Position numbers and translations under genes: made by a program
Notes under the pieces: model-generated
Told to the model about the DNA's origin: nothing
Databases searched by the model: none
The model's input: only the letters and a program-made list of their open reading frames with translations
Part shown: positions 7,235 through 34,368 of the stretch, in pieces
How the letters are laid out: each line of letters opens with the position of its first letter
Numbering within the stretch: position 1 is the first letter of the stretch
Assembly: GCA_964458565.1 (NCBI GenBank)
Contig: CAYWJO010000007.1
Location: 37,154-101,153, forward strand
Reading direction: 5' to 3'
DNA: 64,000 nucleotides
Source: an uncultured archaeon
GTDB taxonomy: Archaea > Asgardarchaeota > Thorarchaeia > Thorarchaeales > Thorarchaeaceae

Positions 7235-10198
7235 ATGATATCATCAAAACATGTTCAAATCGTTGGATTTCTGCTTCTTTTTCTTCTACCAATGTTTGGA
7301 TTGTATTATAGCAATAAGAAGGAAATACCAACGGTCTATATTGTAATATCGGATAATTATGATGTAAGAGTGGACTTGGCATCAACTACAATTCATAAGG
7401 AGTTTGAATCTGTAAGAGTAAAAGTAATTGAGATATTGTTGAGCCAATGGGATAAAATACGAGGTAAACCTGATGCTTTAGTCATCATAGGTCATGGCCG
7501 AACAGACGGAATTGAAACCCCTTCGGGTGTGCTTCCATGGACTGAACTCTATACAGATATTTCTGTGATTGACCCAACGCGAACAGTAGTCCTTGCATGC
7601 AAATCGCCTACAGATTTGAGATACAACATCTATGGATTTGTTGGGCAAATCGATGCTGAAGCAGGGGCATTATTATCAGTATGGCATATCCGCCAGATTA
7701 TCAATTATGATATAATGGATACTACTTGTCGTCAACGTATTTTTGAATGTCAACTGAATATGGCAAATCCGTTGGGCACTTATCTATACTTTGTACATGG
7801 TTACTATGGAAATAATGGTGAATTTGATCATATGATAAATATAATCCAGCCTGATCTATTATTGAAGTATGATGGATTCAGGTATTTCGATTATTTTGAA
7901 GACTATCCTAGTCTAACTCCAATTGAGATTCACAATGTCGAGTTTGGTATATCAGCATATGCTAATAATTTTGCCAACAAAATTCTTAGTTCTCATAATT
8001 CAGGAGATCAGATTGACATCGTTGCACACAGTATGGGTGGAATCATCACACGAGAACTATTGAATCTTAATCGAACAGAATTGGATTTAGCTGGAATTGG
8101 AATTGGAAAAATCATCACATTAGGAACACCTCATTTGGGAACAGTTGCAGCGGTGAATCCTGTTGGAGATTTGGTAGCATTCATCATGTCATTAATGGGA
8201 CAAAATTGGGACACACCCGTCTTTCGCTCTTTAGCACCAGATAGTGCTCTAATGTATTTTCTCAATTACAACCCCATGATTTACTCAGAAGGTATTGAAT
8301 GGTATACCATAGCTGGAATAAACTATGCCGTCAATGCACAATTTATGGGTATATTCGAAGGTGATAACGACGGGATTGTTGCTGTCAGTAGTGCTCATCT
8401 ATCTTTTTCAGATCAGCTTACAATCGAGGATATCGCTCATGAAAACTTAATCAATGATACTCTGTATTGCACTTATGGATATATTGACGAATGGCTCGTT
8501 GGACCTCTTGATTCTGATGGTGATGACATCTCCAATGCCTTAGAGATTAGTGTCTATCATACAAACCCCTACAATACAGATAGTGATGGAGATGGAATGC
8601 CAGATGATTGGGAAATACGGTTCCTTCCTGACCTGAATCCTCTGACAGATGACGCACATGCTGACTGTGATTCGGATGATCTGGATAACATAAACGAGTA
8701 TTTACTGGGAACTGATGTTTTGGACTTTGATAGTGATGATGATTATCTCTACGATGGAGAGGAAGTTGATGACTATCTGACAGATCCTCTCAATAGTGAT
8801 TCGGATTATGACACTTTATTGGATGGGGATGAAATCGATATCTATGGTTCCGACCCCCTGAGCATCGATTCTGATGATGATGGAATGCCAGATCAGTGGG
8901 AGGCACAATATTACGACTTGCTTTACTTAAATTATGATGACTCACAGGATGATCTTGATAGTGATGGTCTAGATAATCTAGATGAGTATCTGTATGGTAG
9001 TGATGCCTTCAATATAGACAGCGATGGTGACTCGTTGTTTGATGGGAATGAAGTTAATCAATACTTTACAGACCCGATGGATTCTGATAGTGATGATGAT
9101 GAACTTAGTGACGGGTACGAAATCAATACGTCACATACATATCCCTATGACTGGGACAGCGACGATGATACGCTCTCTGATGGATTTGAGTTGGATGCCG
9201 GGTCGGACCCTATGAGTAGTGATGGAGATTCTGATCAGATGCCTGACGTGTGGGAAGTGCAGTATATGCCTTACCTAGACCCAATGTATCCTGATGCATA
9301 TTATGACTGCGATGATGACGAATTGACCAATCTAAATGAATACCTTCTCTCCACAAACCCTATTGACTGTGACAGTGATTCAGACCAAATGCCTGATGGC
9401 TGGGAGGTGCAATATGGTCTGAATCCACTCGTTGATGACTCTCAATCCGACCTAGACTCAGATGATCTAACAAATGTTCAAGAATATATCTGTGAAACAT
9501 TTCCAGACGATTCTGACAGTGACAATGATGCCATACCAGATGAATGGGAGGTACAAAACGGTCTGAATCCGCTGTTTAGTGATGCACAACAGGACACAGA
9601 TGCAGATGGACTGAGTAATCTGGAGGAATATCAGTATTCCACCAATCCGCAGGACTCTGACAGTGACAATGATGCCCTATCCGACTGGGTAGAGATCTAT
9701 ACCTATTCAACGGATCCGCTTGACAATGATTCTGACAATGATGCTCTGACCGATGGTTCTGAGATCAACAGTCATGGAACCAATCCACTGGCATGGAGCA
9801 CCGATGCAGATTTTTTGAGCGATGGTCAGGAGATTGCCTGGGGGTATGATCCCAATGACTCGGACGACCCAATAACAGCTACAGAACTCATCGCCTCAGC
9901 ATGGAGCAAGTCCATCCTTGGGTATGTCCGAGTGAATGACCCTCTTGCTGTGGACTATGTAAAGGTGTACGTGAAATACAAGGACAGTTCTGGTTGGTGG
10001 ACGAACTATTATTACCTGGGTCGGGTCGATGATGTACATCCGGTCTATCAGGATTACTATATGTGTTGGACCCTTCAATATGGCTATGTCCAGATGAAGG
10101 TGTATGTCAAAGCCTATGACTCTGGTGCTCACTTCATAGGGAGTGATGTCTACTATGCGAACATAAAGACTGATGGAGGTGACCCTCCGCCTCTGTAA
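7235..10198 (+). CDS. large secreted/anchored protein: N-terminal signal/TM, alpha/beta-hydrolase (lipase/PGAP1-like) domain, long array of TSP3-like Ca-binding repeats, C-terminal beta-rich domain
   Basis: Hydrophobic N-terminus (VGFLLLFLLPMFGL). Nucleophile elbow VAHSMGG and GTPHLGT. From about residue 425 to 880 there are many D-x-D-x-D-G/D-x-x-D-x-x-E units (DSDGDGMPDDWE, DSDSDQMPDGWEVQYGLNPL, DSDNDAIPDEWEVQNGLNPL). Confidence 0.8.
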   Translation: MISSKHVQIVGFLLLFLLPMFGLYYSNKKEIPTVYIVISDNYDVRVDLASTTIHKEFESVRVKVIEILLSQWDKIRGKPDALVIIGHGRTDGIETPSGVLPWTELYTDISVIDPTRTVVLACKSPTDLRYNIYGFVGQIDAEAGALLSVWHIRQIINYDIMDTTCRQRIFECQLNMANPLGTYLYFVHGYYGNNGEFDHMINIIQPDLLLKYDGFRYFDYFEDYPSLTPIEIHNVEFGISAYANNFANKILSSHNSGDQIDIVAHSMGGIITRELLNLNRTELDLAGIGIGKIITLGTPHLGTVAAVNPVGDLVAFIMSLMGQNWDTPVFRSLAPDSALMYFLNYNPMIYSEGIEWYTIAGINYAVNAQFMGIFEGDNDGIVAVSSAHLSFSDQLTIEDIAHENLINDTLYCTYGYIDEWLVGPLDSDGDDISNALEISVYHTNPYNTDSDGDGMPDDWEIRFLPDLNPLTDDAHADCDSDDLDNINEYLLGTDVLDFDSDDDYLYDGEEVDDYLTDPLNSDSDYDTLLDGDEIDIYGSDPLSIDSDDDGMPDQWEAQYYDLLYLNYDDSQDDLDSDGLDNLDEYLYGSDAFNIDSDGDSLFDGNEVNQYFTDPMDSDSDDDELSDGYEINTSHTYPYDWDSDDDTLSDGFELDAGSDPMSSDGDSDQMPDVWEVQYMPYLDPMYPDAYYDCDDDELTNLNEYLLSTNPIDCDSDSDQMPDGWEVQYGLNPLVDDSQSDLDSDDLTNVQEYICETFPDDSDSDNDAIPDEWEVQNGLNPLFSDAQQDTDADGLSNLEEYQYSTNPQDSDSDNDALSDWVEIYTYSTDPLDNDSDNDALTDGSEINSHGTNPLAWSTDADFLSDGQEIAWGYDPNDSDDPITATELIASAWSKSILGYVRVNDPLAVDYVKVYVKYKDSSGWWTNYYYLGRVDDVHPVYQDYYMCWTLQYGYVQMKVYVKAYDSGAHFIGSDVYYANIKTDGGDPPPL
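8510..9871 (+). repeat. coding tandem repeats (thrombospondin type-3-like aspartate-rich units) inside the lipase gene
   Basis: Repeated DSD.D..(P/S)D.WE / NPL..DSD units. At DNA level, gattctgacagtgacaatgatgcc (9509-9532) recurs as gactctgacagtgacaatgatgcc (9653-9676), 23 of 24 identical. Confidence 0.75.
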
Positions 10199-12949: not shown

Positions 12950-14152
12950 CTATGAGGACCTATCTCTTACATGTGTTGAGTGAACTGTAAGAAATTTCTG
13001 TGTTTCACCTTTCTTACGACTACTGTCACCAGCCTTCTTCTGTTTTGACTCATTAGAAGCGACGTAATCTTTCTCCAACTTCATTTGGACATGGTCCATC
13101 TGTTGACACCAGGTTTCTGTCCTCTGCATTTTGTTTTCATTAGCGTCAGATACATTTTTTGTTCTAATGATAGCAGAAGGGTTTTCCACAGTCTTTTCCA
13201 TGGCAGGGTCTTTAGTGTTATCAAACATAGCTAATGATGTCTGACTCTCACACTCAGCCACGGATCGTCTCCTTGAATCTGACGACTTCGAAGACGATAT
13301 GGACTCCCTTTTAGAGCATTTACTCCTTGAGGTATTTGGGATGGCTTTTGACTTGCAAAGCCAAACTCCTAGTCCATTCTTCTCATCTCTTAGTGAATTG
13401 ATGAGCTTGATGACACGCATTCCAATATTGATTGCTCCATTAAGGTCTGCGTTTGCTCTGAAACCACAAGTGTGACAAATGAAAAGACTTTGTTTTGGTC
13501 GTACTCCCTTGTTCCCACATCTATGACATATAATCGAGGTCCAAGCTTCATTGACTGCCAAGAATCTTTTTTTGTCAAATCCTTTAGTTACCAAGGAATG
13601 TTCAAGATAGACTCTTATACGAGCAAAAGACCATCGATGTATCATTCTTCGATATTTCTTACCTCTCAGATTACCTCTCCTCGCTGATTCACGAATTCCA
13701 CGAAGTTTTCCTATGGCAATCCATATGTCATAGTCTTTTGTTAACTCAATGATTCTGGAAACAATATCACTCACAAGTTTCTTATCGAATTCTTTACTAA
13801 CTCTATCTCGTTTCCCACTCAAGATTCTTAATCGTTTAGCGACTTGGCTTGAATCCTTTCTTTGTGATATCAGGCGTTCCTTCATTTTCTGTAGACTAGC
13901 AATATTCTCGTCATATTTTGATATGACTTGCAGCTTGTCATCTTGATACCAATACTGAACATGTTTGAATCCAGATTTTGTCAATAAGACAGTGCATGCT
14001 GCTTTATCAATACCCAAATCGATTCCAAAAACAGCAGAGGGTTTTCCAACCGACTCGATTTTTTGAACATCTATTGTGACTGTAAAAATCGCCCACCATT
14101 TCTTATGGGTGTCCTTGAAGAGTCTTACAGTCTTTACATTCCCACGTTTCAT
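12950..14152 (-). CDS. TnpB-like (IS200/IS605 OrfB family) RuvC + zinc-finger protein, N-terminally short, with a long Ser/Lys/Arg-rich C-terminal tail; possibly degenerate
   Basis: VFGIDLGIDKAA (RuvC-I Asp), CHRCG...CHTCGF zinc finger, ANADLNGAINIG (RuvC-III Asp). GIDLG lies only about 45 residues from the N-terminus. Where hhhE(D/N)L is expected the sequence reads IAIGKL. Confidence 0.75.
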   Translation of the reverse strand: MKRGNVKTVRLFKDTHKKWWAIFTVTIDVQKIESVGKPSAVFGIDLGIDKAACTVLLTKSGFKHVQYWYQDDKLQVISKYDENIASLQKMKERLISQRKDSSQVAKRLRILSGKRDRVSKEFDKKLVSDIVSRIIELTKDYDIWIAIGKLRGIRESARRGNLRGKKYRRMIHRWSFARIRVYLEHSLVTKGFDKKRFLAVNEAWTSIICHRCGNKGVRPKQSLFICHTCGFRANADLNGAINIGMRVIKLINSLRDEKNGLGVWLCKSKAIPNTSRSKCSKRESISSSKSSDSRRRSVAECESQTSLAMFDNTKDPAMEKTVENPSAIIRTKNVSDANENKMQRTETWCQQMDHVQMKLEKDYVASNESKQKKAGDSSRKKGETQKFLTVHSTHVRDRSS

Positions 14153-21604: not shown

Positions 21605-22093
21605 ATGGCTACAAAAGTTAGAATAGACACACAATATGGTCCGATTCATGCAGAATTCTGGAATGATGATGCTATAAACACGGTCAAGAATTTCATCGTG
21701 CTTGCCCAGAGTGGTTATTACGATGGACTGACATTCCATCGAGTGGTTGACGATTTCGTTATACAGGGCGGAGACCCAACCGGTTCTGGTAGTGGAGGTC
21801 CTGGCTACGCAATACCCTGTGAAACCCGAGGTCATAGACAGAAGCACGAAGATGGGTCCTTCTCAATGGCTCATGCAGGCCGCGACACTGGTGGTAGTCA
21901 ATTCTTCATTGTTTTAAACAAGAACAGCACTAAGCACCTTGATGGTCGACACACAGTCTTTGGTAAGGTCACAGAAGGTTTTGACATTGTCCAGAAGATC
22001 AAACAGGGTGATAAGATGCTAAAAGTAGAAGTACTTGAAGTAGACCCTGAGATTGAAAGTCACGAACTTCAGAAACTCAAATCTTGGAGATAG
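21605..22093 (+). CDS. cyclophilin-type peptidyl-prolyl cis-trans isomerase
   Basis: FHRVVDDFVIQGGDPTGSGSGGPGY, MAHAG.DTGGSQFFI and HTVFGKV. Confidence 0.95.
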   Translation: MATKVRIDTQYGPIHAEFWNDDAINTVKNFIVLAQSGYYDGLTFHRVVDDFVIQGGDPTGSGSGGPGYAIPCETRGHRQKHEDGSFSMAHAGRDTGGSQFFIVLNKNSTKHLDGRHTVFGKVTEGFDIVQKIKQGDKMLKVEVLEVDPEIESHELQKLKSWR

Positions 22094-22113
22094 TTACATA
22101 GTCCACTTGAGGG

Positions 22114-23004
22114 ATGAGCTTGAGATACGGATTAGTCCCCCTTGAATTCAAACCCACTGTTGACCGAATAATCACTGACGGTAAACCTGATTTCTCTCGG
22201 TTCAACATTGTTGATATGGTTAGAGATGCTGTACAGATTGAACACATTAGTGTCATAGAGGTCACGATGGACGTTTGGTATGTGATTCCTGGAGCTCTTA
22301 CTCCTGATACAATAAATCAGCTAGCAGAGCTCAAGGACGACTATGGACACTCCTATACTGCTCATCTTCCTCTCTGGTCTATTGAACTTGCAACGTTTAA
22401 TGACCCGGTTAGAACAGGTGGTGTAAGGAGTATTGTTGATTCCATCAAACTGGTTGAGCCTCTTGAACCCGAATTCTACGTGTTACATTCTACAGGCTCA
22501 CTAGCCGCAGAGTTTGCAAGGTTGGATTTTGCTAAAGAGATGGTGAACGTGATATGCACAGCAATGGCAGGATTTTCAGCTACAAGTGTTGAAGAAATTC
22601 TGGCCCAGAGTGAGATAGACCCTCGACGAATTGCTGTGGAAAATGTTGAATTCCCCTTTGAGACAACTCGTGCAATAATTGATGAGTATGACCTGAGCAT
22701 CTGTTTTGATACGGGACACCTCTTGACCAAGTATTCTGGTAACGAGTCTGTACTTGAGTTCTATCAAGAGCACAAAGACCGTATTACTGAACTCCACCTG
22801 AATGATGGTACATATAGAGAGGTAGACGGGGTCCCTATTCATGCCGATCATCTTGCCCTTGGAACTGGAGAGCTCCCTGTAAGGGAATTTCTTCTTGAAT
22901 TACTCAAGGATGACTTTGACGGACCTATGATCTTTGAGCTTACCGCTGAAGAGGCTCGTCAATCCTTACAGAAAATTCATGAAGTTATACCCGAGGCAAT
23001 TTAA
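22114..23004 (+). CDS. xylose-isomerase-like TIM-barrel protein (sugar phosphate isomerase/epimerase family)
   Basis: 296 aa with family-like segments VLHS, ENVEFP, CFDTGHL and ELHLNDG....H..LG.GELP. Confidence 0.65.
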   Translation: MSLRYGLVPLEFKPTVDRIITDGKPDFSRFNIVDMVRDAVQIEHISVIEVTMDVWYVIPGALTPDTINQLAELKDDYGHSYTAHLPLWSIELATFNDPVRTGGVRSIVDSIKLVEPLEPEFYVLHSTGSLAAEFARLDFAKEMVNVICTAMAGFSATSVEEILAQSEIDPRRIAVENVEFPFETTRAIIDEYDLSICFDTGHLLTKYSGNESVLEFYQEHKDRITELHLNDGTYREVDGVPIHADHLALGTGELPVREFLLELLKDDFDGPMIFELTAEEARQSLQKIHEVIPEAI

Positions 23005-23077
23005 GATACTGTTCTACGAGCGTGATTGCTAAGGCACATACTGACATAGCCCGAAACTCTGAGGACTGTGAACTATA

Positions 23078-23998
23078 ATGACTACCAAGATGCGCTCGTT
23101 TCATTGGAAGGATGACTTTGAATTAGTAAAGTCCTTTCTAATTGAGACATTTGAGTTGACTCCGTACCACAACTGGATTCCTTCAAGACTCGAAAATGTA
23201 AGATTTGGTCCTTGTGGGCCCGAATACCAAGATGAAGAGGACGAATATATCAAAATTTGGGAGGAAATTACAGATTTAGGTACAAAGATAATAGCTGTAT
23301 CCTATATGAAACCATCACTGGAATGTTGGATTCATACACATCCTGATTACAAGCACGTTGAGAGAGAGATCATTCTCTGGACTGAGAATCATGCAAAAGA
23401 GATGAAACCCGATGCAGGTGAACGAAAAATCAGCTTCATCACGCGTGACATAGATGAGAAGCGCGTTTCACTATTGAACGAAATGGGTTATCAAGAGATT
23501 GAGCTATATGGAGACTTACAAGTACGCCCTACTGATTTACCTGCTCCTGATTATACAGTGCCTGATGGATTCTCGATCACACACGCTCTCATGGAGCAAG
23601 ATTTTGAGAAATACACAGAAGTACAAGGATCTGTCTTTCCACACTGCAAAAATATGACTAAGAAGTTGCTGATGCATTATGCTTCAGCTTCGTTCTACAA
23701 CGCAGAACTTGATATTGTAGCTGTAGCTCCAGATGGCAGGTTTGCTGCATTCTGTACAGTGCGAATAGATCCCGTAAGCAAAATCGCTGAACTAGAACCC
23801 GTTGGTACAAATCCTGAGTTCAGGAAATTGGGCCTTGCGAGAGCTGTGGTACTAGAGGGACTACATCGTGTTAAGAAATACAATCCTTCCGCGATATGCA
23901 TACCTGGTGCTGCAGCGACTGAGGGGGCGCGGAATCTCTACAAATCAGTTGGTTTCCAAATAATCGGTGGCGAATACCTCTGGAATAAGACGATTTAG
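23078..23998 (+). CDS. GNAT-family N-acetyltransferase (two-lobed, about 306 aa)
   Basis: C-terminal acetyl-CoA-binding-like segment ELEPVGTNPEFRKLGLARAVVLEGL......A....GA....ARNLYKSVGF. Confidence 0.7.
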   Translation: MTTKMRSFHWKDDFELVKSFLIETFELTPYHNWIPSRLENVRFGPCGPEYQDEEDEYIKIWEEITDLGTKIIAVSYMKPSLECWIHTHPDYKHVEREIILWTENHAKEMKPDAGERKISFITRDIDEKRVSLLNEMGYQEIELYGDLQVRPTDLPAPDYTVPDGFSITHALMEQDFEKYTEVQGSVFPHCKNMTKKLLMHYASASFYNAELDIVAVAPDGRFAAFCTVRIDPVSKIAELEPVGTNPEFRKLGLARAVVLEGLHRVKKYNPSAICIPGAAATEGARNLYKSVGFQIIGGEYLWNKTI

Positions 23999-24160
23999 GA
24001 CAGATTCTCTATCAGGAATACCACGATACCTATCTGTCTCTTCATGACATCATGAAAATCAAATTTGCCTAAAGTTATTGGGTTTTGACTGGCTTGTGAA
24101 TGGTCAACGAATATTGCAGTAACGTTTTTATCGGAACGCTCTCCCCCAACTATCACCCAT

Positions 24161-24266
24161 GGGCCCGTGGCATAGCCTGGTGAAATCGACCACGGTCATT
24201 TCGGGTTTTTATTGCGCCGCTCTGATAAGGCGGATGTCGGGTGTTCAAATCACCCCGGGCCCACCA
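24161..24266 (+). tRNA. tRNA-Ile (anticodon GAU) with a 27-30 nt insertion in the D arm; CCA is encoded
   Basis: Hand fold: acceptor GGGCCCG/CGGGCCC, D arm GCAT-AGCCTGGT...[insertion containing hairpin GAAATcGAC-cacg-GTCATTTC]...(A)TTGC, anticodon arm CCGCT-CTGATAA-GGCGG, variable ATGTC, T arm GGGTG-TTCAAAT-CACCC. Confidence 0.8.
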
Positions 24267-24333
24267 CTTTCTATTGAATTGAACCCAATCCTTTTTCACA
24301 AAGTACAACTCATGTTATTTGCTGTTGTTTGCT

Positions 24334-25179
24334 ATGACAAAGTCTAACAATTTACCAGTAGTCATTGATATTAGCACACGTCTAACAATGGTTGGTTTTG
24401 CAGGAGAAGTAGCTCCACGTTTCGTTTGGCCCACTGTTGTTGGATATTCAATAGATCATAGTATGATAGATAGTGATTCCTCAGTTCCTTACAAGATCGG
24501 CAAGTATGCATTAGACTCGTTATCCCCTATGCTAGTCTATCCGTTAAAGGCTGGAATCATCGAAGATTGGGATGCAATTGAGGCTATCTTGGCATTTACT
24601 TTCAAATCACTTGAAATCAAATCTTCTGAGAGTAAAGTTTTGATAACAGAATCAATATCTTCTCCCCCTGAAACTCACCAACATCTGATGCAATTGATGT
24701 TTCATAAATTCGGTGTGAGTCATCTCTACGTGACACTTCGACAGGTACTCGCTCTATATGCTGTCCGGAAAGGATCAGGTGTTGTCATCGATTTCGAGCC
24801 AGACTATGCATTAATCGTACCAATATTCGAAGGTCTTGCCATTCCACATGTAAAAGAAATCCTGAATCTGCCGGTCATAACGGGATTTGAGCTTTCGTTT
24901 CTTGCAGAACGATTAATAGCTGCAGTTGAGAATACAAATCCAGACATCTACGATGATTTATACAGCAACATTGTACTTACGGGTAGTTCTACAACAACAC
25001 CTCAATTCAGAGAGAGCCTTGAGAAAGAGATTGCTGAACGGATAGCCTCGGATAGAAACTTCTCAATAATTGATATTCCAGAAAAGCTCTACATGGCTTG
25101 GATTGGAGGGAGCAGGTTAGCAAATGTATCATCATTCAATGAGGTATGGATGAGTCGTACTGAATTCACACAGAAATGA
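24334..25179 (+). CDS. actin-family protein, unusually short (about 281 aa)
   Basis: VVIDISTRLTMVGFAGEVAPRFVWPTVVG, LITES....PETHQHLMQLMFHKFGVSHLYVTLRQVLALYA, IVPIFEGLAIPH and YMAWIGGSRLANVSSFNEVWMSRTEF align colinearly with eukaryotic actin. The start is taken at ATG 24334. Confidence 0.8.
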   Translation: MTKSNNLPVVIDISTRLTMVGFAGEVAPRFVWPTVVGYSIDHSMIDSDSSVPYKIGKYALDSLSPMLVYPLKAGIIEDWDAIEAILAFTFKSLEIKSSESKVLITESISSPPETHQHLMQLMFHKFGVSHLYVTLRQVLALYAVRKGSGVVIDFEPDYALIVPIFEGLAIPHVKEILNLPVITGFELSFLAERLIAAVENTNPDIYDDLYSNIVLTGSSTTTPQFRESLEKEIAERIASDRNFSIIDIPEKLYMAWIGGSRLANVSSFNEVWMSRTEFTQK

Positions 25180-25233
25180 CCTGATCGACCGCAGTAGCAA
25201 CAACTTGCATTGAATTCCATCTCCTATGGGATT

Positions 25234-27360
25234 CTAGAACATACCACTCAACCACTGGTGAATATGCGCAATAACAGGAAGGAAGAGTGTAGCAGTCAGG
25301 GAAATCACGACAAGCAAAGTATTGATTGATGGGCCTGCAGTGTCTTTGAATGGGTCGCCCACCATATCTCCACGTACTGAGTTCCGGTGTATTTGATCAT
25401 ATCGTGGGTGGTCATGGTCATACTCAGGAGACTCAATCATCTTCTTTGTATTATCCCAAGCCCCTCCAGCATTACTCATCAATAGGGCCATGATAAAGCC
25501 GACCAAGACTGCACCACCAAGATATCCACCAAGCGCTTCAAGCCCCAAGATTGAACCAGTTAAAATTGTAACACCTATTACGATGATAGTAGATGGCATG
25601 AGTTCTCTTATAGCGCCAGATGTTGCTATTTCAATACATTTGTCATAATCTGGTTTTGAGGTTCCTTCAAGAATACCAGGATCTACGCGGAACTGTCTAC
25701 GAATCTCTTCAATCATTCGTCCTGCATTACGATCAACACCAAGAATGAGCATCGCAGTAAATGTAATTGGCACTAACGCTCCGATGAATGCACCCGCCAA
25801 GATGAATGGATCTGCTATATTGACAATAATCTCTTCTCCAATGAGCATCTCCGCTGCTTCAACAAATGCTGCAAATAAGGCAAGAACGGATATAGCTGCA
25901 GACCCAATAGCAAATCCCTTTGTGATTGCCTTAGCCGTATTACCTGCTGCATCTAATTTATCACAAGCTATAATGGCTTCTTCTGAAGCATTCGATTGTT
26001 CAATAATACCTCTCGCGTTATCAACAATAGGTCCATAGCTATCAGAGCTCATGGTAAGTCCATTTGTTGCCAGGAGTCCAACTGCAGCAATTGCTACCGC
26101 ATAAATTCCCCCCATCCAACCTCCAAGTCCCAGAGATGTTGTTGTCGAACCGAGGATGAATGATGCCACAAGTGCTACAATAACTCCAATTACTGAAGGT
26201 ACGGCACTGAGAAGACCGTATGAATATCCTGACAGTATGAGGTTCGCTGTGCTCTTCTCAGCATTTTCTACCATATTCCTTACTGGTTGAAATCCGAAGA
26301 GACCTTTATCATTTGTAAAGACATCAGAGGTGAATCCTATAAACACACCAGCAAGTAGTCCAAAGATTGCAGAGGCTGCAATTACAATATCAATTCCAAG
26401 AATGAGAATTACAGCTACAACCAATACACCAAAGAGAATAGTTGTTATGTAAGTGCCTCTGTTAAGGGCTGGACCAGGATCATCCTGTTCATTAGGTCTT
26501 ACCAAATAAACTCCAATCACTGATGCGATGGTACCTAATGCTGCTATTACTAGAGGCAGGAGTCCAAAGGCGTATGGTAATGCAAATGTTGCATCAAGTC
26601 CTGCTCCTAGAAGGGCAGCAGCCAGAATTGCGGCGACATTGCTATCGAAGATGTCTGCACCTGTTCCAGCAACATCTCCCACGTTGTCGCCAACAGCGTC
26701 TGCAATTGCCGCAGGATTTCTCGGGTCATCCTCTGGAATGTGCTGCTCGATTTTACCAACAATGTCTGCTGACATATCCGCAGTTTTGGTAAAGATTCCT
26801 CCACCTGCTTTTGCAAACAGCGCCACAGTACTCGCGCCAAATGAAAAGCCTGTAATCATCTCCCATAGGAATGGGGCCGCAATTCCTGGAAATATCACGA
26901 ACCACATCAAGTAAAGAGCTGATAATCCAACAAGAGCAATGCCTGCTATCATCAGCCCCATTACCGAACCCGATCTAAACGCTATCTTGAATGCAGGACC
27001 AAGCCCTCCTTCTGCGGCTGCAGCTGCTGTTCGTCGATTCGCTTGTGTTGCCACTGCCAGACCTATATATCCCGCTCCCATACTAGCAAAGGATCCTATG
27101 ATGTATGAGATTGCAATGGGTATTCCATAGTCAACAAAGACAATTGCAATGACAACTGCTAGGAACAGAGTAAAGAATGTAAGTATACGATATTGTATCT
27201 TAATGAAAGAGTCAGCTCCATCTTGTATCAACCGACTGACTTCATGCATTCTCTTGTCACCTTCATCCGCTCTCATAACTACGCGATATGTGTATAGAGC
27301 TACAAGGATGGCAAGTAGACCTGATAAAAGCGAAATGGATAGAAATAGAAGATCTGACAT
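25234..27360 (-). CDS. hppA: membrane-bound ion-translocating pyrophosphatase
   Basis: GGGIFTKTADMSADIVGKIE, AVGDNVGDVAGTGADIFDS, NAGGAWDNTKK and GDPFKDTAGPSINTL, with about 16 TM helices. The start is taken at MSDLLF (27360); the track ORF extends to 27435. Confidence 0.95.
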   Translation of the reverse strand: MSDLLFLSISLLSGLLAILVALYTYRVVMRADEGDKRMHEVSRLIQDGADSFIKIQYRILTFFTLFLAVVIAIVFVDYGIPIAISYIIGSFASMGAGYIGLAVATQANRRTAAAAAEGGLGPAFKIAFRSGSVMGLMIAGIALVGLSALYLMWFVIFPGIAAPFLWEMITGFSFGASTVALFAKAGGGIFTKTADMSADIVGKIEQHIPEDDPRNPAAIADAVGDNVGDVAGTGADIFDSNVAAILAAALLGAGLDATFALPYAFGLLPLVIAALGTIASVIGVYLVRPNEQDDPGPALNRGTYITTILFGVLVVAVILILGIDIVIAASAIFGLLAGVFIGFTSDVFTNDKGLFGFQPVRNMVENAEKSTANLILSGYSYGLLSAVPSVIGVIVALVASFILGSTTTSLGLGGWMGGIYAVAIAAVGLLATNGLTMSSDSYGPIVDNARGIIEQSNASEEAIIACDKLDAAGNTAKAITKGFAIGSAAISVLALFAAFVEAAEMLIGEEIIVNIADPFILAGAFIGALVPITFTAMLILGVDRNAGRMIEEIRRQFRVDPGILEGTSKPDYDKCIEIATSGAIRELMPSTIIVIGVTILTGSILGLEALGGYLGGAVLVGFIMALLMSNAGGAWDNTKKMIESPEYDHDHPRYDQIHRNSVRGDMVGDPFKDTAGPSINTLLVVISLTATLFLPVIAHIHQWLSGMF

Positions 27361-27551
27361 TGCGGGCTCCTGTTGAGGATTTTCAAACCATATTATAGAC
27401 ATTGCTATGCATCGGCTAATTACAAGCCGGACCATTTGGTATGCCCAACTTCAATGAATTGTAGTACGGATATATTGGAACACGTGTTCCAATCCTAATT
27501 TTGGTATCTATAGTAAAACCAATCAATTTGTTTTCTGTCTATCATCTCGCA

Positions 27552-28007
27552 ATGAAAGACGAAGACGAGAATAAATTTGATTCAATCGCAAAAAAACTCG
27601 AAGCTGCACTTGAAGACAAGAAAGAGGAGCTCGCTAATGGTGAATTAAATGAGATTGAAGATACAACAGGGCTTGAGAATATTAAGCGTCTAAATACTGC
27701 AATTATTGAATTTTATACCACAAATTGTCCCTATTGTAAACAAATGACACCTATTCTTGAGGAGCTCGCAGAGAGCTTCAAGTCAAAGGTCTATTTTGCC
27801 AAGGTTAACATTGAGAACATACCCACCGTTATAGAAAAATTCTCCATTTTAGGAGTGCCAGAGCTCATTGTTTTCAAAAAAGGACAAGAAGTGGGGAGAG
27901 CTGAGGGTCTCCAAATCTATGAAACACTGGATGAGTGGATTGATAGCATTCATAGAGGACTCAGACCAATGGGGATGATTCTAGGGCTTTCAACTAAAAC
28001 GCGTTAG
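27552..28007 (+). CDS. thioredoxin-fold protein with an acidic N-terminal extension
   Basis: Active-site-like FYTTNCPYCKQM (CxxC), followed by AKVNIE......KF.I.GVPELIVFKKG. Confidence 0.75.
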   Translation: MKDEDENKFDSIAKKLEAALEDKKEELANGELNEIEDTTGLENIKRLNTAIIEFYTTNCPYCKQMTPILEELAESFKSKVYFAKVNIENIPTVIEKFSILGVPELIVFKKGQEVGRAEGLQIYETLDEWIDSIHRGLRPMGMILGLSTKTR

Positions 28008-28022
28008 ACCCGACTACTTTTC

Positions 28023-28445
28023 TTAATCATCAGCGGAGCTGCCTTCTATGGCAATATCTGATGAATCTGGCTTAGGATATCTTCCGCTTCGAACACGCCA
28101 TCCATCATAGCAGATATACAAGAATATCCCATAGAATATGATCATTGCAAGGTATAGTCCTACAACAATGATGAGCGACTCTGCTAATGGACCAAGAATT
28201 GCCTCAAGAATAATCTGAGGGAATAGCATGGTGACTAAAATGAGTGCGGTCATGGTTAGAGTTACAACAAACATCACAGGGAATATTCCAGCAGAGTGAT
28301 GTGATGAAGAACAATAGACTTTTTTTCCGTCTTTCCAAGTTCTCTCTTCAACAGGAGCTCCACACCAAGCACATGTCATTTTTCCTTCATCTACTGAATC
28401 TGACTTATCTGTCAATACAATCTCCCTTACAATCTCTATGGCCAA
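28023..28445 (-). CDS. zinc-ribbon membrane protein, function unknown
   Basis: N-terminal CAWCGAP...YCSSSHH followed by three hydrophobic helices. Confidence 0.45.
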   Translation of the reverse strand: MAIEIVREIVLTDKSDSVDEGKMTCAWCGAPVEERTWKDGKKVYCSSSHHSAGIFPVMFVVTLTMTALILVTMLFPQIILEAILGPLAESLIIVVGLYLAMIIFYGIFLYICYDGWRVRSGRYPKPDSSDIAIEGSSADD

Positions 28446-28502
28446 TCAAATCCACATATCTCTTATGCTTCTAATCCGTGATTCAGGTACGTTTCGGTAC
28501 TC

Positions 28503-30389
28503 TCAGAGTTTCAATTTGAAGATGTACTCATCATCAGCCCTTGAGAGATGACTCTCCACTACACGATCGGTTCGATGAAGGAATCTAATCATTGGTAGAT
28601 TTCTTGGATGCACATATGCTATAAATGCGTCAATCCCCTTGCTCTTTGCAATTCTCATGAGGTGATTGAGAAGGAACGTTCCAACACCTTTTCCTTGATA
28701 TTCGTCCTGGATCAATAGTGCAAACTCAGCCTCATTCGTACTTCTGTCTAGGAGATATCTCCCTGCACCGATTATTCTCTCAGTTTCGTGTTCTTTGTCT
28801 GGATATATTACAGCGATAATGGACACATCTCTGTCTGCATCAACATCATAGAAGTCTTGCAACGTCTTTCTTGGTAGACTTCTTAATGGTGTGAGGAATC
28901 TGAAATAGATGCTTTCTTCAGAGAGATCATAGAACAGATCTTTAATCCTATCAGTGTCATCGGGCCTAACAAGACGGAAATAAACAGTCACCGGACCATC
29001 GGGACCTTTGAATTCTTCTTGTGTTTCGTATTCACTAGCGAAATACGTACCTGTGACCTGAAATGGTACTTGGTCTTCGTGGACGTATTGCATTTTCTTT
29101 GCAGCGTCTAATAATTCGTTTCTAAAGTCGGGGTGTGCAATTGCAATCAATGAAAGTACACGTTCACGTATAGTCTTTCCATGTAGTGTCGCGAGACCAT
29201 ATTCTGTGATTATAACATCGACGTCGCCTCTAGTTGTAACGACACCCGCACCTTCACTGAGTTGGGGCACAATGCGTGAAACAGTACCCTCCATTGCTGT
29301 ACTCTGCATTGTGATGATTGCCTTCCCACCAATTGATCTATTAGCACCACGAATGAAGTCTACTGCGCCGCCTATCCCCGAAAAGAAGCGATGTCCAATT
29401 GAGTCTGCGCACACTTGTCCTGTGAGGTCAATCTCAAGCGCAGAGTTGATGGCTATCATTTTCGTGTTCTGTCCAATCACATACGGATCGTTCACATACT
29501 CCGTGGGATAAAAATGAAACATTGGATTATCATTGATATATTCATAGAGCTTCTCTGAACCCATAGCGAATGATGCGATTACCTTATCCTTGTTTATGCT
29601 CTTTTTCCTATTTGTTACAATTTCCTGTTGGATCAGTGGAATGAGACTATCACTGAACATTTCGGTGTGAATTCCTAAGTCCTGTACACCAATTTCAAGG
29701 AGACTATTACATACCGCCTGAGGCAACGCACCAATTCCTAATTCTATGGTTGACTCATTTTCAATTAACCTGGCTACAAAACTTCCTATCTTGTTTATAG
29801 TATCTGATCCTTCTGCAGGCTCAAATTCACGAAGTGGTTCATTATACGATACTAACCAATCAATGTCCCTCACATTCATGAACGAATCGCCATGTGTGAT
29901 TGGCATTCTCTCGTTGACCTGTGCTATTACTAAATCTGCGCTTTCAGCTGCGGACTTGGTGATATCTACTGCTATTCCTAGTGAAACATAACCATGTTGA
30001 TCAGGAGGGCTCACTTGAATCATGGCTACATCAAGTGGCATTCTCTTTTGTCTGAACAGACGTGGGATGTCTGAGAGCATGATGGGTGTGTAATCCGCAC
30101 GTCCATCAGTGACTGCCTCTCGGATATTCTCAGAGACAAAGAACGTGTTATGCCTGAATGCATTTTGAAATTGAGGGTCTGCTGATGGTGTATCTCCCAG
30201 AGTAAGCAAATGCACAATTTCATTATCTGCCATCTTTACTGCATTCTTTGCGAGTTCCTGAACTAGATGATATGGTACTCCACATCCTGTACCTAGGAAT
30301 ATTCTAGTCCCTCGCTTGATTTTTCTAATGGCTGTACTAGAGTCAACAGTCTTCTTTTTGTATTTCTCAATCCAGTTTTCAGCAGTCAT
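28503..30389 (-). CDS. fusion protein: acetyl-CoA hydrolase/transferase (4-hydroxybutyrate CoA-transferase-like) domain + C-terminal Pat-type GNAT acetyltransferase domain
   Basis: The N-terminal 440 aa show CoA-transferase family features (GTGCGVP, EIDLTGQVCADS, SGIGGAVDFIRGA). The C-terminal 180 aa read RLVRPDDTDRIKDLFYDLSEESIYFRF....DVD.....IIAV.......IIGAGRY........AEFALLIQDEYQGKGVGTFLL, as in Pat/PatA protein lysine acetyltransferases. Confidence 0.85.
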   Translation of the reverse strand: MTAENWIEKYKKKTVDSSTAIRKIKRGTRIFLGTGCGVPYHLVQELAKNAVKMADNEIVHLLTLGDTPSADPQFQNAFRHNTFFVSENIREAVTDGRADYTPIMLSDIPRLFRQKRMPLDVAMIQVSPPDQHGYVSLGIAVDITKSAAESADLVIAQVNERMPITHGDSFMNVRDIDWLVSYNEPLREFEPAEGSDTINKIGSFVARLIENESTIELGIGALPQAVCNSLLEIGVQDLGIHTEMFSDSLIPLIQQEIVTNRKKSINKDKVIASFAMGSEKLYEYINDNPMFHFYPTEYVNDPYVIGQNTKMIAINSALEIDLTGQVCADSIGHRFFSGIGGAVDFIRGANRSIGGKAIITMQSTAMEGTVSRIVPQLSEGAGVVTTRGDVDVIITEYGLATLHGKTIRERVLSLIAIAHPDFRNELLDAAKKMQYVHEDQVPFQVTGTYFASEYETQEEFKGPDGPVTVYFRLVRPDDTDRIKDLFYDLSEESIYFRFLTPLRSLPRKTLQDFYDVDADRDVSIIAVIYPDKEHETERIIGAGRYLLDRSTNEAEFALLIQDEYQGKGVGTFLLNHLMRIAKSKGIDAFIAYVHPRNLPMIRFLHRTDRVVESHLSRADDEYIFKLKL

Positions 30390-30538
30390 AATCCCAACAT
30401 CCTGATGCGTCTATTCCGCTAGAGGTTGCATATAGGACTTTCCAAGTGGTACAAGATATTATGACACGACAGAAACCTTTTTGCTCACCATGTTCGGGCT
30501 CAGTCTTGTTTGACAACATATTATGGGAGAACACTCTC

Positions 30539-31813
30539 ATGTCTGAAGAAAAAATTGGTAATCGATATTTGGTGATACTTGGTGCAATTATCGTGCAACT
30601 ATGTTTGGGTACAATCTACGCATGGTCCGAGTTTCAGAATGCATTGAAACTTGAAGGCGGTCTGTATCAGTGGACCCCTCTAAGCACTCAATTGCCGTTC
30701 GCCGCAGGTCTTGCTTCTTTTGCCCTTTTCATGGTCTTTGCAGGACGATGGCAGGATAAGGCTGGGCCTCGAAAGGTAGCCACAGTGGGCGGTGTTCTGC
30801 TTGGTGTTGGTTATCTCCTTGCATCTTTGGTGGATACACTAGCATTAGATGAACTCACCGGAACCATTTACCTCATCATCACCTATGGTATAATTGGTGG
30901 TGCTGGTATTGGATTCGCATACGTATGTCCCATTGCAGCATTAGTCAAATGGTTCCCTGATAAGAAAGGAAGCGTTTCTGGAATTGCTGTTGCAGGGTTT
31001 GGTGGTGGTGCACTTATCTTTCTATTTGTGGAAGATTTCCTGATCAATACAGTATTTGGTGGTTATATTGGCTTTGCATTTCTGGTTCTTGGTGTCGTAT
31101 ATCTCATTGGCGTAGTACTGGGCTCACAGATACTTGTCAATCCACCAGTAGGATGGGCTCCTGAAGGATGGACACCTCCCATCACAATCGCTGATGGTTC
31201 TGGTGGTGGAATGATGCCTGGTGAAATGATTAGGAAGGCAACATTCTGGCTTCTCTGGCTCTCGTTTATATTTGCAGCAACCGCTGGTCTAATGACCCTT
31301 GGCAATGTGAAAAGTGCCGCTGCTGAAGTAGACCCCACAGTGATTCCACTCGGTCTGGGTGCATTGATAGGTGGAATAATGTCCATCTTTAACGCAATAG
31401 GACGAATTGTATGGGGTATTACATCAGATAAGCTTGGTCGAGCTAGGACTATGGTTTTAATGTTCTTGTTCCTCATGATTGCAATGTACAGTTTTGCATT
31501 CGTGGCATTATTACCTGATACAGAGGGACTTTGGATTACCGTCACTCTGATTGCTTCAGTGATAGGATTCTGTTTTGGTGGGAATTTTGCCCTCTTCCCC
31601 TCAGCAACAGCTGACTATTTCGGTTCAGAGAACGTAGGTAAGAACTATGGTGTAGTCTTTACAGCATATGGTATTGCAGGTATTGTTGGTGGTCTTGTTG
31701 CAGGATCATTTGTAGGTCTAACTGGCTCCTACTTCCTTGCATTCATAACAACAGAATTTCTTGCTATGTTCGCTATCTTGCTAACACTCTACCTATACTG
31801 GAAATACGAGTAG
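30539..31813 (+). CDS. MFS transporter of the oxalate/formate antiporter (OFA) / monocarboxylate type
   Basis: 12-TM profile, with GRWQDKAGPRKV after TM2 and GRIVWGITSDKLGR in the second half. The start is taken at ATG 30539. Confidence 0.8.
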   Translation: MSEEKIGNRYLVILGAIIVQLCLGTIYAWSEFQNALKLEGGLYQWTPLSTQLPFAAGLASFALFMVFAGRWQDKAGPRKVATVGGVLLGVGYLLASLVDTLALDELTGTIYLIITYGIIGGAGIGFAYVCPIAALVKWFPDKKGSVSGIAVAGFGGGALIFLFVEDFLINTVFGGYIGFAFLVLGVVYLIGVVLGSQILVNPPVGWAPEGWTPPITIADGSGGGMMPGEMIRKATFWLLWLSFIFAATAGLMTLGNVKSAAAEVDPTVIPLGLGALIGGIMSIFNAIGRIVWGITSDKLGRARTMVLMFLFLMIAMYSFAFVALLPDTEGLWITVTLIASVIGFCFGGNFALFPSATADYFGSENVGKNYGVVFTAYGIAGIVGGLVAGSFVGLTGSYFLAFITTEFLAMFAILLTLYLYWKYE

Positions 31814-31824
31814 TATACTAAAAC

Positions 31825-31853
31825 GAGGTTATGGGGATATTTTCCCATACCTC
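31825..31853 (+). terminator. hairpin downstream of the MFS gene
   Basis: GAGGTtATGGGG-atatttt-CCCATACCTC (one bulged T), followed by a T-rich tract. Confidence 0.35.
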
Positions 31854-31948
31854 TCTCAATTCTTTTTAGCACTCCCTGATTTGACAAGTTGAACGATACT
31901 TTGATGAAAATCCGTTTTTCAATTAAATATCGTGCCCTTGGATAAGCG

Positions 31949-31956
31949 TTATATAG
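31949..31956 (+). promoter_or_regulatory. TATA-like box upstream of acs
   Basis: ttatatag ends 31 nt upstream of the acs ATG (31987), consistent with an archaeal promoter giving a very short leader. Confidence 0.4.
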
Positions 31957-31986
31957 ATAAACCTGCGGACGGCGCTCAAAGCATCG

Positions 31987-34005
31987 ATGCTTAAGGTGAC
32001 TAATTTGTCTGAAGAAAAAAAGATCACTGTTTTAGAAGCGGAAGCAAGAAGATTCGCGCCTCCCAAGAGCTTTGTCGATAAAGCATATATCAAGTCTCAC
32101 GAGGAACGAATGGAGATGTGGAAGAAGTCCATCTCGGATCCAGATGGCTTCTGGCTAGATATAGCAACATCGGATTTGTTCTACTGGAAGACTAAACCGA
32201 CAAAGGGTTTCGAATGGCAAGATACACAGAATGTTAAATTCACATGGTTCGCCGATGGCGTGACCAATATGGCCTACAATTGCATGGATAAGTGGGTCGA
32301 GCAGGGTCGTGGTGACCAGGTCGCAATTATTTGGCAGGGTGACCCCGTTGATGAGTCGCGTACCTACACCTACAAGCAGCTTCAAATCGAGGTAAGCAAA
32401 GCTGCCAATGTTCTAAAAAATCTCGGTCTGAAGAAAGGTGATACCGTCACAATCTACCTACCTATGATTCCTGAACTAGCTATTCTCATGCTTGCCTGTG
32501 CTCGAATTGGTGCTGTCCACAGTATCGTCTTCGGTGGCTTCACTGCAGACTCACTGAAAGACAGGATTGAGGACTGTCAGAGCAAAGTTCTCATCACTGC
32601 TGATGGTTACTATCGCGCATCTAAGGTCATTCCACAGAAGAAAAACGCTGACGCCGCGCTTGAGAATATCTCAGTGGTTGAGAAAATCCTCGTTGTCAAA
32701 CGTGGTATTGATGGCCTTGACGTACCAATGAAATCCGGTCGCGATTTCTGGTTCCATGAAGAACTTGAGAAGGTTGAGGAAACGTGCGAGCCCGAATGGT
32801 TAGGTGCTGAAGACCCACTATTCATCCTTTACACATCTGGTTCAACCGGAAAACCAAAGGGTGTGCTTCACACACTCGGTGGTTACATGGTCTATACCGC
32901 TCACACATTCCTGAATATCTTCGATTGGCATCCTGGTGATGTCTATTGGTGTACGGCGGACATAGGTTGGATAACTGGACATTCCTACCAAGTATATGGC
33001 CCACTCGGTGCAGGTGCAACCTCAATGATGTTTGAGGGCGTGCCAACATACCCTGATGCAAGCCGATTCTGGATGGAGGTAGAGCGCTGGAAAGTAAACC
33101 AATTCTATACAGCCCCGACAGCCATACGTGCCCTGATGAAATTCGGCGAAGAACCCGTTAAGAAACACGATCTCTCCTCACTGAATCTTTTGGGCACAGT
33201 AGGAGAACCCATCAATCCAGCCGCTTGGATGTGGTATCACGAGGTAGTAGGCAAAGAGAGATGTCCAATTGTGGACACCTACTGGCAAACAGAAACAGGC
33301 GGAGTAATTTTTACACCCCTTCCCGGAGCAACTGAGACAATACCCGGAAGTTGCACCTTTCCATACTTTGGAGTTGACCCTGTCATCGTAGATGAAGGCG
33401 GCTCTGCAACAGGCCCTAATGAGGGCGGATACCTCTGTATCAAATCACCATGGCCAGGTCTCATGCGTACTGTCTTCGGAGACCACCAGAGGTTTGTGAA
33501 TACCTATTGGACTCAATACAAAGATCCCGAAACAGGCAATCCAATGTATATGACCGGAGATGGTTCACGCTTCAACGATGATGGCTACTTCTTCGTGATG
33601 GGTCGAATCGACGACGTACTGAAAGTATCTGGTCACAGACTTGGAACTGCTGAGATTGAGTCAGCTCTCGTCAAGCACCCCGCAGTTTCAGAGTGTGCAG
33701 TTGTAGGTTTCCCACATGAGATAAAGGGAGAAGATATCTATGTCTTTTGTACACTCAGAAAAGGTGTCGAAGGAACCGAGGAACTTCGCCAAGAGCTGCG
33801 GAAACACGTCAGGACTGAAATTGGACCAATCGCTACACCAGCTAAAGTACAGTTTGCTGACGCGCTACCGAAGACCAGAAGCGGAAAGATAATGCGCCGA
33901 ATATTGAAACGCATCGCTGCTGGAAAGATTGAGGACATCGGAGATACCTCCACACTCGCAGATCCAACAGTTGTCGAAACCCTCGTTCGTGAGAGAATCG
34001 AGTAA
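31987..34005 (+). CDS. acs: acetyl-CoA synthetase (AMP-forming)
   Basis: [20 protein letters not shown], the GDG...D.DGY hinge region, and C-terminal [13 protein letters not shown] including the conserved regulatory/catalytic Lys. Confidence 0.95.
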
Positions 34006-34018
34006 ATGGCACAATTAA

Positions 34019-34048
34019 AGTGTAGAGAGGTTTTATCCTCTCTCCACA
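34019..34048 (+). terminator. hairpin plus T-tract after acs
   Basis: GTGTAGAGAGG-ttttat-CCTCTCTcCACAC followed by ttctgttttt. Confidence 0.4.
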
Positions 34049-34122
34049 CTTCTGTTTTTAATGAATATTTTTCAAAAGGTTTATCGGTTTTAAAGACTAA
34101 TTGATAATGGGTATGTCACATT

Positions 34123-34368
34123 TTGAATTGGCCAATTTATAATAAATGTGACTCTCAATCAGGAACTTGTTATCGACGTTTCTTTATACTCTATATCATA
34201 CTGCTCATCATATCGACTATTGAATTTCTTGGTAATACCTCATTCTTTTACGATTTTCAACTTGTGCTTTACATTCTACTTGGTGTTGGAATCATGAGCA
34301 CCATGATTGCAATCTATCTCATCGTGAAGAACCCTCCAAATTCATCATCTTTTGATTCTCACATCTAG
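34123..34368 (+). CDS. possible small two-TM membrane protein
   Basis: 81-aa ORF with a non-ATG start and two hydrophobic stretches. No other support. Confidence 0.25.
   Translation: MNWPIYNKCDSQSGTCYRRFFILYIILLIISTIEFLGNTSFFYDFQLVLYILLGVGIMSTMIAIYLIVKNPPNSSSFDSHI

Follow-up and report, generated by a model that had tools for sequence, protein, structure and literature searches.

Introduction

The four-subdomain, ATP-clamping design of actin is among the most conserved of protein architectures. The only described exception without subdomain 4 (subdomain IIb in the bacterial nomenclature) is bacterial AlfA, which still uses ATP. AlfA keeps five nucleotide motifs, binds ATP in a novel mode, polymerises and works as a plasmid partition motor (10.1101/186080, 10.1101/190744). 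Lokiactin has been reported in all Asgard lineages, and Asgard genomes hold several actin-related proteins (ARPs) with a patchy distribution (PMC9834061). As for described roles of such paralogues, Arp10/Arp11 caps the pointed end and terminates the Arp1 minifilament of dynactin (PMC3583065). The present analysis concerns a gene for a short actin on a 64,000-nucleotide stretch of DNA (the window: positions 37,154 to 101,153 of contig CAYWJO010000007.1, assembly GCA_964458565.1) from an uncultured archaeon of the Thorarchaeaceae. An earlier note, made from the letters of the window alone, had described its product as a miniaturised actin-family protein lacking subdomain 4. Here, this protein is compared with its orthologues, with full-length actins and with the described systems.

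Results and discussion

An actin relative made of subdomains 1, 2 and 3

The open reading frame (ORF; 24334..25179, forward strand) is intact, with 281 codons from its ATG. An in-frame TTG is found 15 nt upstream, at 24319. As the orthologues begin at the MTK…/MTEP… position, the ATG is considered the true start. The Pfam profile Actin (PF00022) matches the protein in two stretches with 190 bits (E=7e-56), above the curated gathering cutoff of 27, which places it within the actin family. A phmmer search against the PDB (E≤0.01) returned 159 distinct actin sequences. The best of these is 9wc4, ‘HC1 actin’ (2.3e-46), from the cultured Hodarchaeales strain HC1, in which chain residues 28-207 align with residues 4-179 of the query and 284-390 with residues 173-279.

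When aligned to rabbit alpha-actin and to Asgard actins (MAFFT, L-INS-i), the protein shows one 83-residue gap, at actin residues ~176-258. Subdomain 4 of actin comprises residues 181-269. The excision junction is common to all orthologues, down to 40% identity, and tblastn revealed no subdomain 4-like fragment coded elsewhere in the 64-kb window. Beyond the gap, PVITGFELSFLAERLIAAVEN is aligned by the tools to actin 264-283, and ITGFELSFLAERL corresponds to actin 266-278, the strand and helix returning from subdomain 4 to subdomain 3. Since both align at actin 264-283, the LAGRDLTDYL segment falls inside the deletion; ITGFELSFLAERL, which had been read by eye as the equivalent of LAGRDLTDYL, must therefore be reassigned. 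The three stretches that the earlier note had aligned to actin by eye were all recovered by the tools.

An AlphaFold2 model of the protein (P0001), made with a 58-sequence alignment, has a predicted local distance difference test score (pLDDT) of 88.2 and a predicted template modelling score (pTM) of 0.87. It is weak only at residues 41-50 of the D-loop (pLDDT 56) and at residues 180-183 of the junction (pLDDT <50). The model of P0009 (264 aa), a member of a more reduced subclade, reaches a pLDDT of 88.9 and a pTM of 0.87. When compared to the PDB with Foldseek, actins alone are found among the top matches listed, with template modelling (TM) scores of 0.86-0.91 normalised to the query and 0.66-0.70 (~0.69) normalised to actin, the latter being the value to expect if about three-quarters of the actin fold is present. 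Subdomains (SDs) 1 to 3 of the four-subdomain actin fold (Ia, Ib and IIa of Ia, Ib, IIa and IIb) are retained and SD4 (IIb) is gone. The protein thus consists of actin SD1, SD2 and SD3 only, with SD4 cleanly excised, and both its place in the actin family and the absence of SD4 from its modelled structure agree with what had been read from the letters.

A conserved family in the Thorarchaeota

Four samples (JGI 3300031364, JGI 3300031360, SRR8557364 and SRR9710542) gave, in independent assemblies, contigs that code for the very same 281-aa protein. About 12 orthologues (sequence clusters) of 251-290 aa with 40-67% identity were retrieved: P0002-P0009 and P0123 by a search of 5.8 billion clustered proteins, and P0121 and P0289 by an exhaustive HMMER pass over 1.84 billion representatives. 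A further short copy lies at locus L009 of a thorarchaeal metagenome-assembled genome. The contig scan for the short actin used two peptide patterns only and recovered one further short copy, which makes it a poor guide to the number of thorarchaeal species with the gene or to its co-occurrence with lokiactin. On the family profile, members score at least 374 bits vs 258 bits for the best full-length lokiactin. All members bearing an organism name belong to ‘Candidatus Thorarchaeota archaeon’, and the family is so far found in Thorarchaeota alone. Together with the nearest full-length relatives being Asgard lokiactins, this supports the Asgard-type origin that had been proposed for the DNA. 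In the same exhaustive search, the eukaryotic ‘short actins’ P0196, P0251 and P0190 were set aside as apparent artefacts, ordinary actins whose gene models skip exons.

Synteny with locus L007, where the orthologue is 61% identical, extends to either side of the actin gene. Found in the same succession at both loci are TRM, cyclophilin, AP-endonuclease, actin, acetyl-CoA hydrolase, acetyl-CoA synthetase, ICMT, AHSA1 and class-II tRNA synthetase, and because the match covers both flanks the two actins are positional orthologues. According to the Nei-Gojobori method, P0003 and P0004, an unsaturated pair (dS 0.60), have a ratio of nonsynonymous to synonymous substitution rates (dN/dS) of 0.146; in the remaining orthologue pairs, it lies at 0.06-0.20. 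The gene is vertically inherited and under purifying selection. The window copy does stop 10 residues before its closest orthologues, and few sequence clusters (~12 out of 5.8 billion) belong to the family, as might be expected of an assembly deletion, a mis-called gene or the remnant of a lokiactin pseudogene. Such an origin is nevertheless extremely improbable, given the four independent assemblies, the common junction, a dN/dS of ~0.15 and the lack of a leftover SD4 fragment in the window, on which four grounds an assembly deletion or pseudogene was rejected; the confident AlphaFold2 models and the family-conserved, non-random substitutions described below point the same way. The decaying gene considered in the earlier note is likewise countered by the existence of short orthologues and by the purifying selection. 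Therefore, the window gene codes for a real, conserved, shrunken actin relative.

The nucleotide cleft

For a residue comparison, 12 short-family sequences were set against 31 full-length Asgard actins. Invariant in all 31 of the latter are N12, G15, K18, H73, Q137, G156, G158, V159, H161, G302, Y143, G146, T148, G168, F262 and R290; D157 is present in 30 of them and E72 in 25. At each of these positions the short family has other residues, in most cases a single one throughout (Table 1). In the phosphate-1 loop, I stands at position 12 in 10/10, R at 15 in 9/10 and M at 18 in 11/12. In the phosphate-2 loop, E156 is found in 12/12, P157 in 11/12 and Y159 in 11/12, with DCEPEY and DCELHH in the divergent members. 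H161 is replaced by variable residues. The adenosine motif shows G302→S (11/12), M305→T (12/12) and Y/F306→T (10/12). As to further nucleotide contacts, K/R336 has become L, and K213 and E214 are gone along with SD4, which took half of the adenine pocket with it; the remaining half has been made polar. D11, D154, T14, G301 and T304 are kept.

The set of five conserved nucleotide motifs (phosphate 1, connect 1, phosphate 2, adenosine and connect 2) with glycine-rich phosphate loops is thus not retained: DI[GS]TR stands for DNGTG, DFEPDY for DSGDGV and GSSTTT for GGSTMF. The changes noticed by eye (DNGSG to DISTR, DSGDG to DFEPD and GGTT to GSST) were reproduced. The description of the loops as ‘degenerate’ holds as far as the motifs are altered and not as a sign of decay: the same new residues recur from member to member, which marks a cleft that was rebuilt rather than left to drift.

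Through glycines 15, 156 and 158, the backbone amides of the phosphate loops can wrap the phosphates in ASKHA-fold proteins. With the exchange of glycines for Arg, Glu or Asp, an added proline, and the loss of K18, Q137, H161 and half of the adenine pocket, the protein is very unlikely to bind or hydrolyse ATP in the canonical way and would be a pseudo-ATPase. R15, K72, R137, E156 and D/E158 might be linked with D11 and D154, which are both kept, in a network of internal salt bridges, and this would hold the two lobes together in the place of Mg-ATP. The three basic and two acidic gains around D11/D154 suggest such an ionic clamp, as a speculation.

Filament-contact surfaces

In the D-loop, hydrophobic positions have become D, S or T in the short family. 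The target-binding cleft shows Y143→I/M, G146→R/K/Q, T148→charged and G168→R/E, the plug F262→N/D and T/T at positions 266-267, and SD3 R290→H and R/K291→D. The barbed-face cleft, the pointed-face D-loop and the lateral plug hence all differ from lokiactin. With the contacts of SD4 lost and the other longitudinal and lateral ones altered, the short actin is not expected to take the place of a regular subunit in a lokiactin-type filament. Nor does it belong to the lokiactins as usually delimited (~375-385 aa, filament contacts conserved): the short family, at 251-290 aa, is a separate clade with 100% support in which Y143, G146, T148, G168, F262 and R290 are replaced.

Table 1 Features of the short actin gene, with positions in the window
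Feature	Position	Strand	Basis
Complete gene of the 281-aa three-subdomain actin paralogue, stop included	24334..25179	+	ORF list, Pfam, orthologues
Phosphate-1 loop DISTR-LTMVGFAG (actin D11-G23): N12→I, G15→R, K18→M, D11 kept	24367..24405	+	Residue comparison
D-loop region of subdomain 2, near-native length, acidic/polar, SIDHSMIDSDSSVP	24448..24489	+	Alignment, residue comparison
PLKAG = actin P70-G74 (PIEHG): E72→K invariant, sensor H73→A/G/S	24541..24555	+	Alignment, residue comparison
LRQV, R136 at the position of catalytic Q137	24736..24747	+	Q137 in 31/31 full-length, R in 12/12 short
AVRKGSG = actin 144-150 (ASGRTTG), hinge and floor of the target-binding cleft: G146→R/K/Q, T148→charged	24760..24780	+	Residue comparison
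Phosphate-2 loop DFEPDY (actin D154-V159, DSGDGV): D154 kept, G156→E, D157→P, G158→D/E, V159→Y	24790..24807	+	Residue comparison
Junction of the excised subdomain 4, PHVK / EILNLPVITG, ~83 residues (actin ~176-258) gone	24844..24885	+	MAFFT; the two HMMER stretches meet here
Adenosine motif TGSSTTT (actin S300-Y306, SGGTTMY)	24979..24999	+	Residue comparison
C-terminal part of subdomain 1, EKLYMAWIGGS…TEFTQK*, K336→L	25081..25179	+	Alignment with orthologues

Subclades and phylogeny

The family consists of two main subclades and two divergent members. Members of clade a (281-290 aa) keep the actin C-terminus (…EGPEVFGREI), and those of clade b (P0007-P0009; 264-273 aa) end directly after WIGGSIFG, so that the last ~27 residues of SD1 are gone. 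The window protein, ending 10 residues before the clade-a orthologues, is without the actin C-terminal …GPxxxHRCF.

A neighbour-joining (NJ) tree, a crude method, was constructed from Kimura distances over 268 columns for 53 taxa with 500 bootstraps. The short family is monophyletic in 500/500 bootstraps (100%) and sits on a very long branch. Its mean distances are 1.10 to the thorarchaeal lokiactins, 1.15-1.30 to other Asgard actins and 1.35-1.37 to Arp1 and the actins of eukaryotes. Only 8.8% of the bootstraps join it specifically to thorarchaeal lokiactin. A lokiactin duplication within or near the Thorarchaeia, followed by fast divergence, is the simplest reading, which the small distance to the thorarchaeal lokiactins and a VWPT motif shared with them suggest without demonstrating it.

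Two full-length actins of the Asgard/eukaryote type are annotated in bacteria, P0271 (Pseudomonas, 374 aa) and P0022 (Candidatus Deferrimicrobium, 379 aa). In the tree, P0022 falls with Promethearchaeota lokiactins and P0271 with eukaryotic actins, and both are candidates for horizontal transfer or contamination. Two Promethearchaeota proteins, P0013 (360 aa) and P0016 (356 aa), are lokiactin-type and otherwise canonical, with differing deletions of ~25-28 aa inside SD4; these may be intermediates or assembly variants.

Possible function

The reading favoured here, tentatively and at a little short of probable, is that the short actin may bind to or regulate the lokiactin cytoskeleton independently of nucleotide. 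This reading is preferred because thorarchaeal genomes code for canonical lokiactins (379-380 aa) and lokiactin is reported throughout the Asgard lineages. The short actin could bind a lokiactin monomer or one of the filament ends and block further subunit addition. The filament capper or regulator that the earlier note had in mind is plausible as a hypothesis, although both filament faces are remodelled. In clade a, a more basic cleft could grip the acidic D-loop of lokiactin, which would favour pointed-end binding; clade b, however, is without the C-terminal wall of the cleft. A narrower proposal, in which the protein would be a naturally nucleotide-free ‘minimal actin’ with the salt-bridge clamp in place of Mg-ATP and would act as an end-binding regulator of lokiactin filaments (a capper or a nucleation seed), is doubtful.

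Several observations weigh against a role at the lokiactin filament. Barbed-face binding cannot be family-wide because clade b is without the C-terminal cleft helices, and the residue comparison identified no retained lokiactin-binding face in the short family. No cytoskeletal gene is a conserved neighbour of the short actin at the loci examined. The loss of nucleotide binding, for its part, is read from sequence only; D11, D154, T14, G301 and T304 are kept, so a different ligand or metal site is possible. AlfA, also an actin fold without IIb, still binds ATP via new contacts and polymerises (10.1101/186080).

AlfA also provides the precedent for a simplified filament-former that would assemble with itself, through new interfaces, into a non-canonical filament, independently of nucleotide or with a novel ligand mode: larger inter-strand contacts compensate for the missing IIb in AlfA filaments (10.1101/186080, 10.1101/190744). 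The purifying selection is strong over the whole surface-forming core, and in clade a an acidic D-loop (D at actin positions 41, 45 and 47 in 7-8/12) is combined with a basic cleft (G146→R/K in 10/12, E167→K in 6/12, G168→R in 5/12), which could be a co-evolved head-to-tail electrostatic contact. This charge complementarity is not family-wide, however, since the window protein retains E167/G168, and clade b is acidic at 167/168 and lacks the C-terminal cleft wall. Moreover, AlfA, unlike the short family, retains all five nucleotide motifs, there is no nearby gene for an adaptor or a centromere-type partner, and the gene is chromosomal and syntenic, unlike the plasmid or phage partition actins. 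Self-assembly of this kind is consequently distinctly unlikely.

Alternatively, the protein could be a subunit of a larger complex unrelated to filaments, docking onto a helix or protein as a non-cytoskeletal scaffold, in the manner of the nuclear Arps (Arp4, Arp7, Arp8 and Arp9). Some structural Arps have lost catalytic residues, as the short actin has, and its filament interfaces are all remodelled over a strictly conserved fold core. According to the Asgard literature, ARP-like paralogues of unknown role occur several to a genome and are expressed below lokiactin (PMC9834061). The loci offer no conserved neighbour gene pointing to a partner complex, there are no fusion domains, and the family is confined to one class and hence not part of a broadly conserved machine. 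A scaffold role is therefore rather unlikely, and a partner or regulator of lokiactin is still the reading that we prefer.

Whatever its role, a stable three-subdomain protein arose and stayed under selection within the eukaryote-like Asgard actin lineage, with the nucleotide-binding glycines discarded. If it regulates lokiactin, the archaeal cytoskeleton would have an Arp-like layer of control and there would be an independent case of actin paralogues turning into regulators. Should the minimal-actin proposal be right, archaea would have their first Arp-type regulator of filaments with an architecture of its own, and it would have arisen independently of the Arps of eukaryotes. A protein that is nucleotide-free yet stable would be a natural test of what SD4 and ATP give to actin folding and assembly. 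In that case, it might also serve as a minimal scaffold for engineering. For eukaryogenesis the family is of indirect relevance, being limited to the Thorarchaeota and to some dozen sequence clusters.

Neighbourhood and other features of the window

The actin gene is preceded by cyclophilin, AP-endonuclease, GNAT and tRNA genes and followed by a H+-PPase gene. Other members are found next to flavodoxin and AAT genes, or to ribosomal and translation genes, and neither the window nor the orthologue loci yielded a functional partner from gene neighbourhood. No second actin, profilin or gelsolin was detected in the 64-kb window with Pfam (E≤1e-5, leaving out the ORFs at 21605-34368 and 61411-63150) and tblastn, it being noted that divergent Asgard profilins may escape Pfam. 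Compared with L007, the window holds an extra block (25234-28007) between the actin and acetyl-CoA hydrolase genes, with a membrane H+-pyrophosphatase-like ORF (733 aa, by eye), a thioredoxin-like ORF (CPYC motif) and a small membrane ORF with a zinc ribbon. Upstream, a GNAT acetyltransferase-like ORF (23078-23998, by eye) is additional too.

Directly upstream of the actin gene, an intron-containing tRNA gene (24161-24267, + strand) has the acceptor stem GGGCCCG…CGGGCCC followed by an encoded ACCA, an anticodon loop CTGATAA that reads GAT (Ile) by eye, and ~25 extra bases in the D-arm region. Rfam matches its 3' part only (24203-24263, 29.7 bits vs a cutoff of 29), and ARAGORN does not report it. 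A second tRNA gene (3859-3963, + strand; Rfam 47 bits) is also missed by ARAGORN and, with its 105 nt, is considered intron-bearing.

Elsewhere in the window, a 400-aa ORF (12950-14152, - strand) with a Cas12f1-like/TnpB TNB domain (PF07282, E 1e-12) adjoins a PIN-domain ORF and is probably a TnpB associated with an IS200/IS605-type transposon. A 987-aa ORF (7235-10198, + strand) combines an N-terminal lipase/esterase-like domain (PGAP1, DUF676, DUF7379) with a stretch of ~500 residues made of D-rich, highly acidic repeats, which are matched by bacterial thrombospondin type-3 repeats. Finally, a 700-aa ORF (42889-44991, - strand), with no Pfam match at E≤1e-5, adjoins a histidine kinase ORF; its N-terminal ~100 residues are Roadblock/LC7-like by eye only.

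Comparison with known systems

The closest sequence relative of the short actin is lokiactin or canonical Asgard actin (9wc4 and the thorarchaeal lokiactins at loci L011-L014), with 37-41% identity over the common region. Shared with lokiactin are the folds of SD1, SD2 and SD3, residues D11, D154, G301 and T304, and the WIGGS motif; a VWPT motif is common to the short family and the thorarchaeal lokiactins. In contrast, the short actin is without all of SD4 and without 10-37 C-terminal residues, and its nucleotide motifs, Q137, H161, H73, K18, D-loop, cleft, plug and SD3 filament contacts are replaced.

AlfA, its nearest precedent in architecture, resembles it as an actin fold of ~275 aa in which a short loop replaces subdomain IIb. 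The window protein shares this loss as an architectural likeness only. The loss of IIb was independent, AlfA being 11-15% identical to other actins, and no AlfA appeared among the best 60 of the 159 PDB sequence matches or the best 50 fold matches. AlfA is carried on a plasmid together with a centromere and the adaptor AlfB. The short actin, in contrast, is encoded on the chromosome, belongs to the eukaryote/Asgard type of actin and no longer has the glycines of the phosphate loops. With its gene among syntenic housekeeping genes, it shows neither kinship to AlfA, nor retained ATP motifs, nor a partition context with an adaptor. A literature phrase search for actins lacking subdomain 4/IIb surfaced, besides AlfA, only ordinary F-actin structure work. 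The statement of the earlier note that no characterised member has this architecture consequently stands for eukaryote-type actins and not for actins at large, since bacterial AlfA has no equivalent of IIb (10.1101/186080).

Like the Asgard ARPs and eukaryotic Arps, the short actin is a divergent paralogue alongside a canonical filament-forming actin, and the termination of the Arp1 minifilament by Arp10/Arp11 is the kind of role that had been proposed for it. The NJ tree gave no kinship to eukaryotic Arp classes: the family is a clade of its own, with Arp1 the most distant group but two. The Arps in the literature examined carry insertions, whereas the short actin lost a whole subdomain. For yeast Arp10 (~284 aa), considered as a short pointed-end Arp, the capping role was confirmed in the literature and the subdomain architecture was not. 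The Asgard ARP literature, which mentions several ARP-like paralogues, does not describe a three-subdomain form, and no description of the short Asgard actin family was found in the searchable literature. What is new here is an actin/Arp paralogue with a new architecture and, judging from its residues, a rebuilt nucleotide cleft, the function being still hypothetical.

Another near match in length is the NCBIfam model ‘syringactin’ (NF040575; 286 positions), on which no paper was found. The window protein reaches 58 bits, over residues 187-279 only, vs the equivalog cutoff of 300 bits, and membership was rejected; other members of the family score 21-68 bits, and the bacterial short actins described below fall with the window protein at 58-92 bits.

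These bacterial short eukaryote-like actins, WP_169154283.1 (P0158; Brasilonema bromeliae, 289 aa) and MCB1172534.1 (P0267; a Leptospiraceae metagenome-assembled genome, 322 aa), are of similar length, also skip SD4 and match the short-family profile as one uninterrupted stretch. The N-terminus of P0267 is hydrophobic and signal-peptide-like. They differ in belonging to another lineage, outside the thorarchaeal clade and much closer to eukaryotic actin (…TNWDD…, …VHRKCN), with the phosphate loops DITGG/NITND and QLADR/AFSEN. Since SD4 is missing from these unrelated proteins as well, it was lost more than once, and its loss may be more tolerable than usually assumed.

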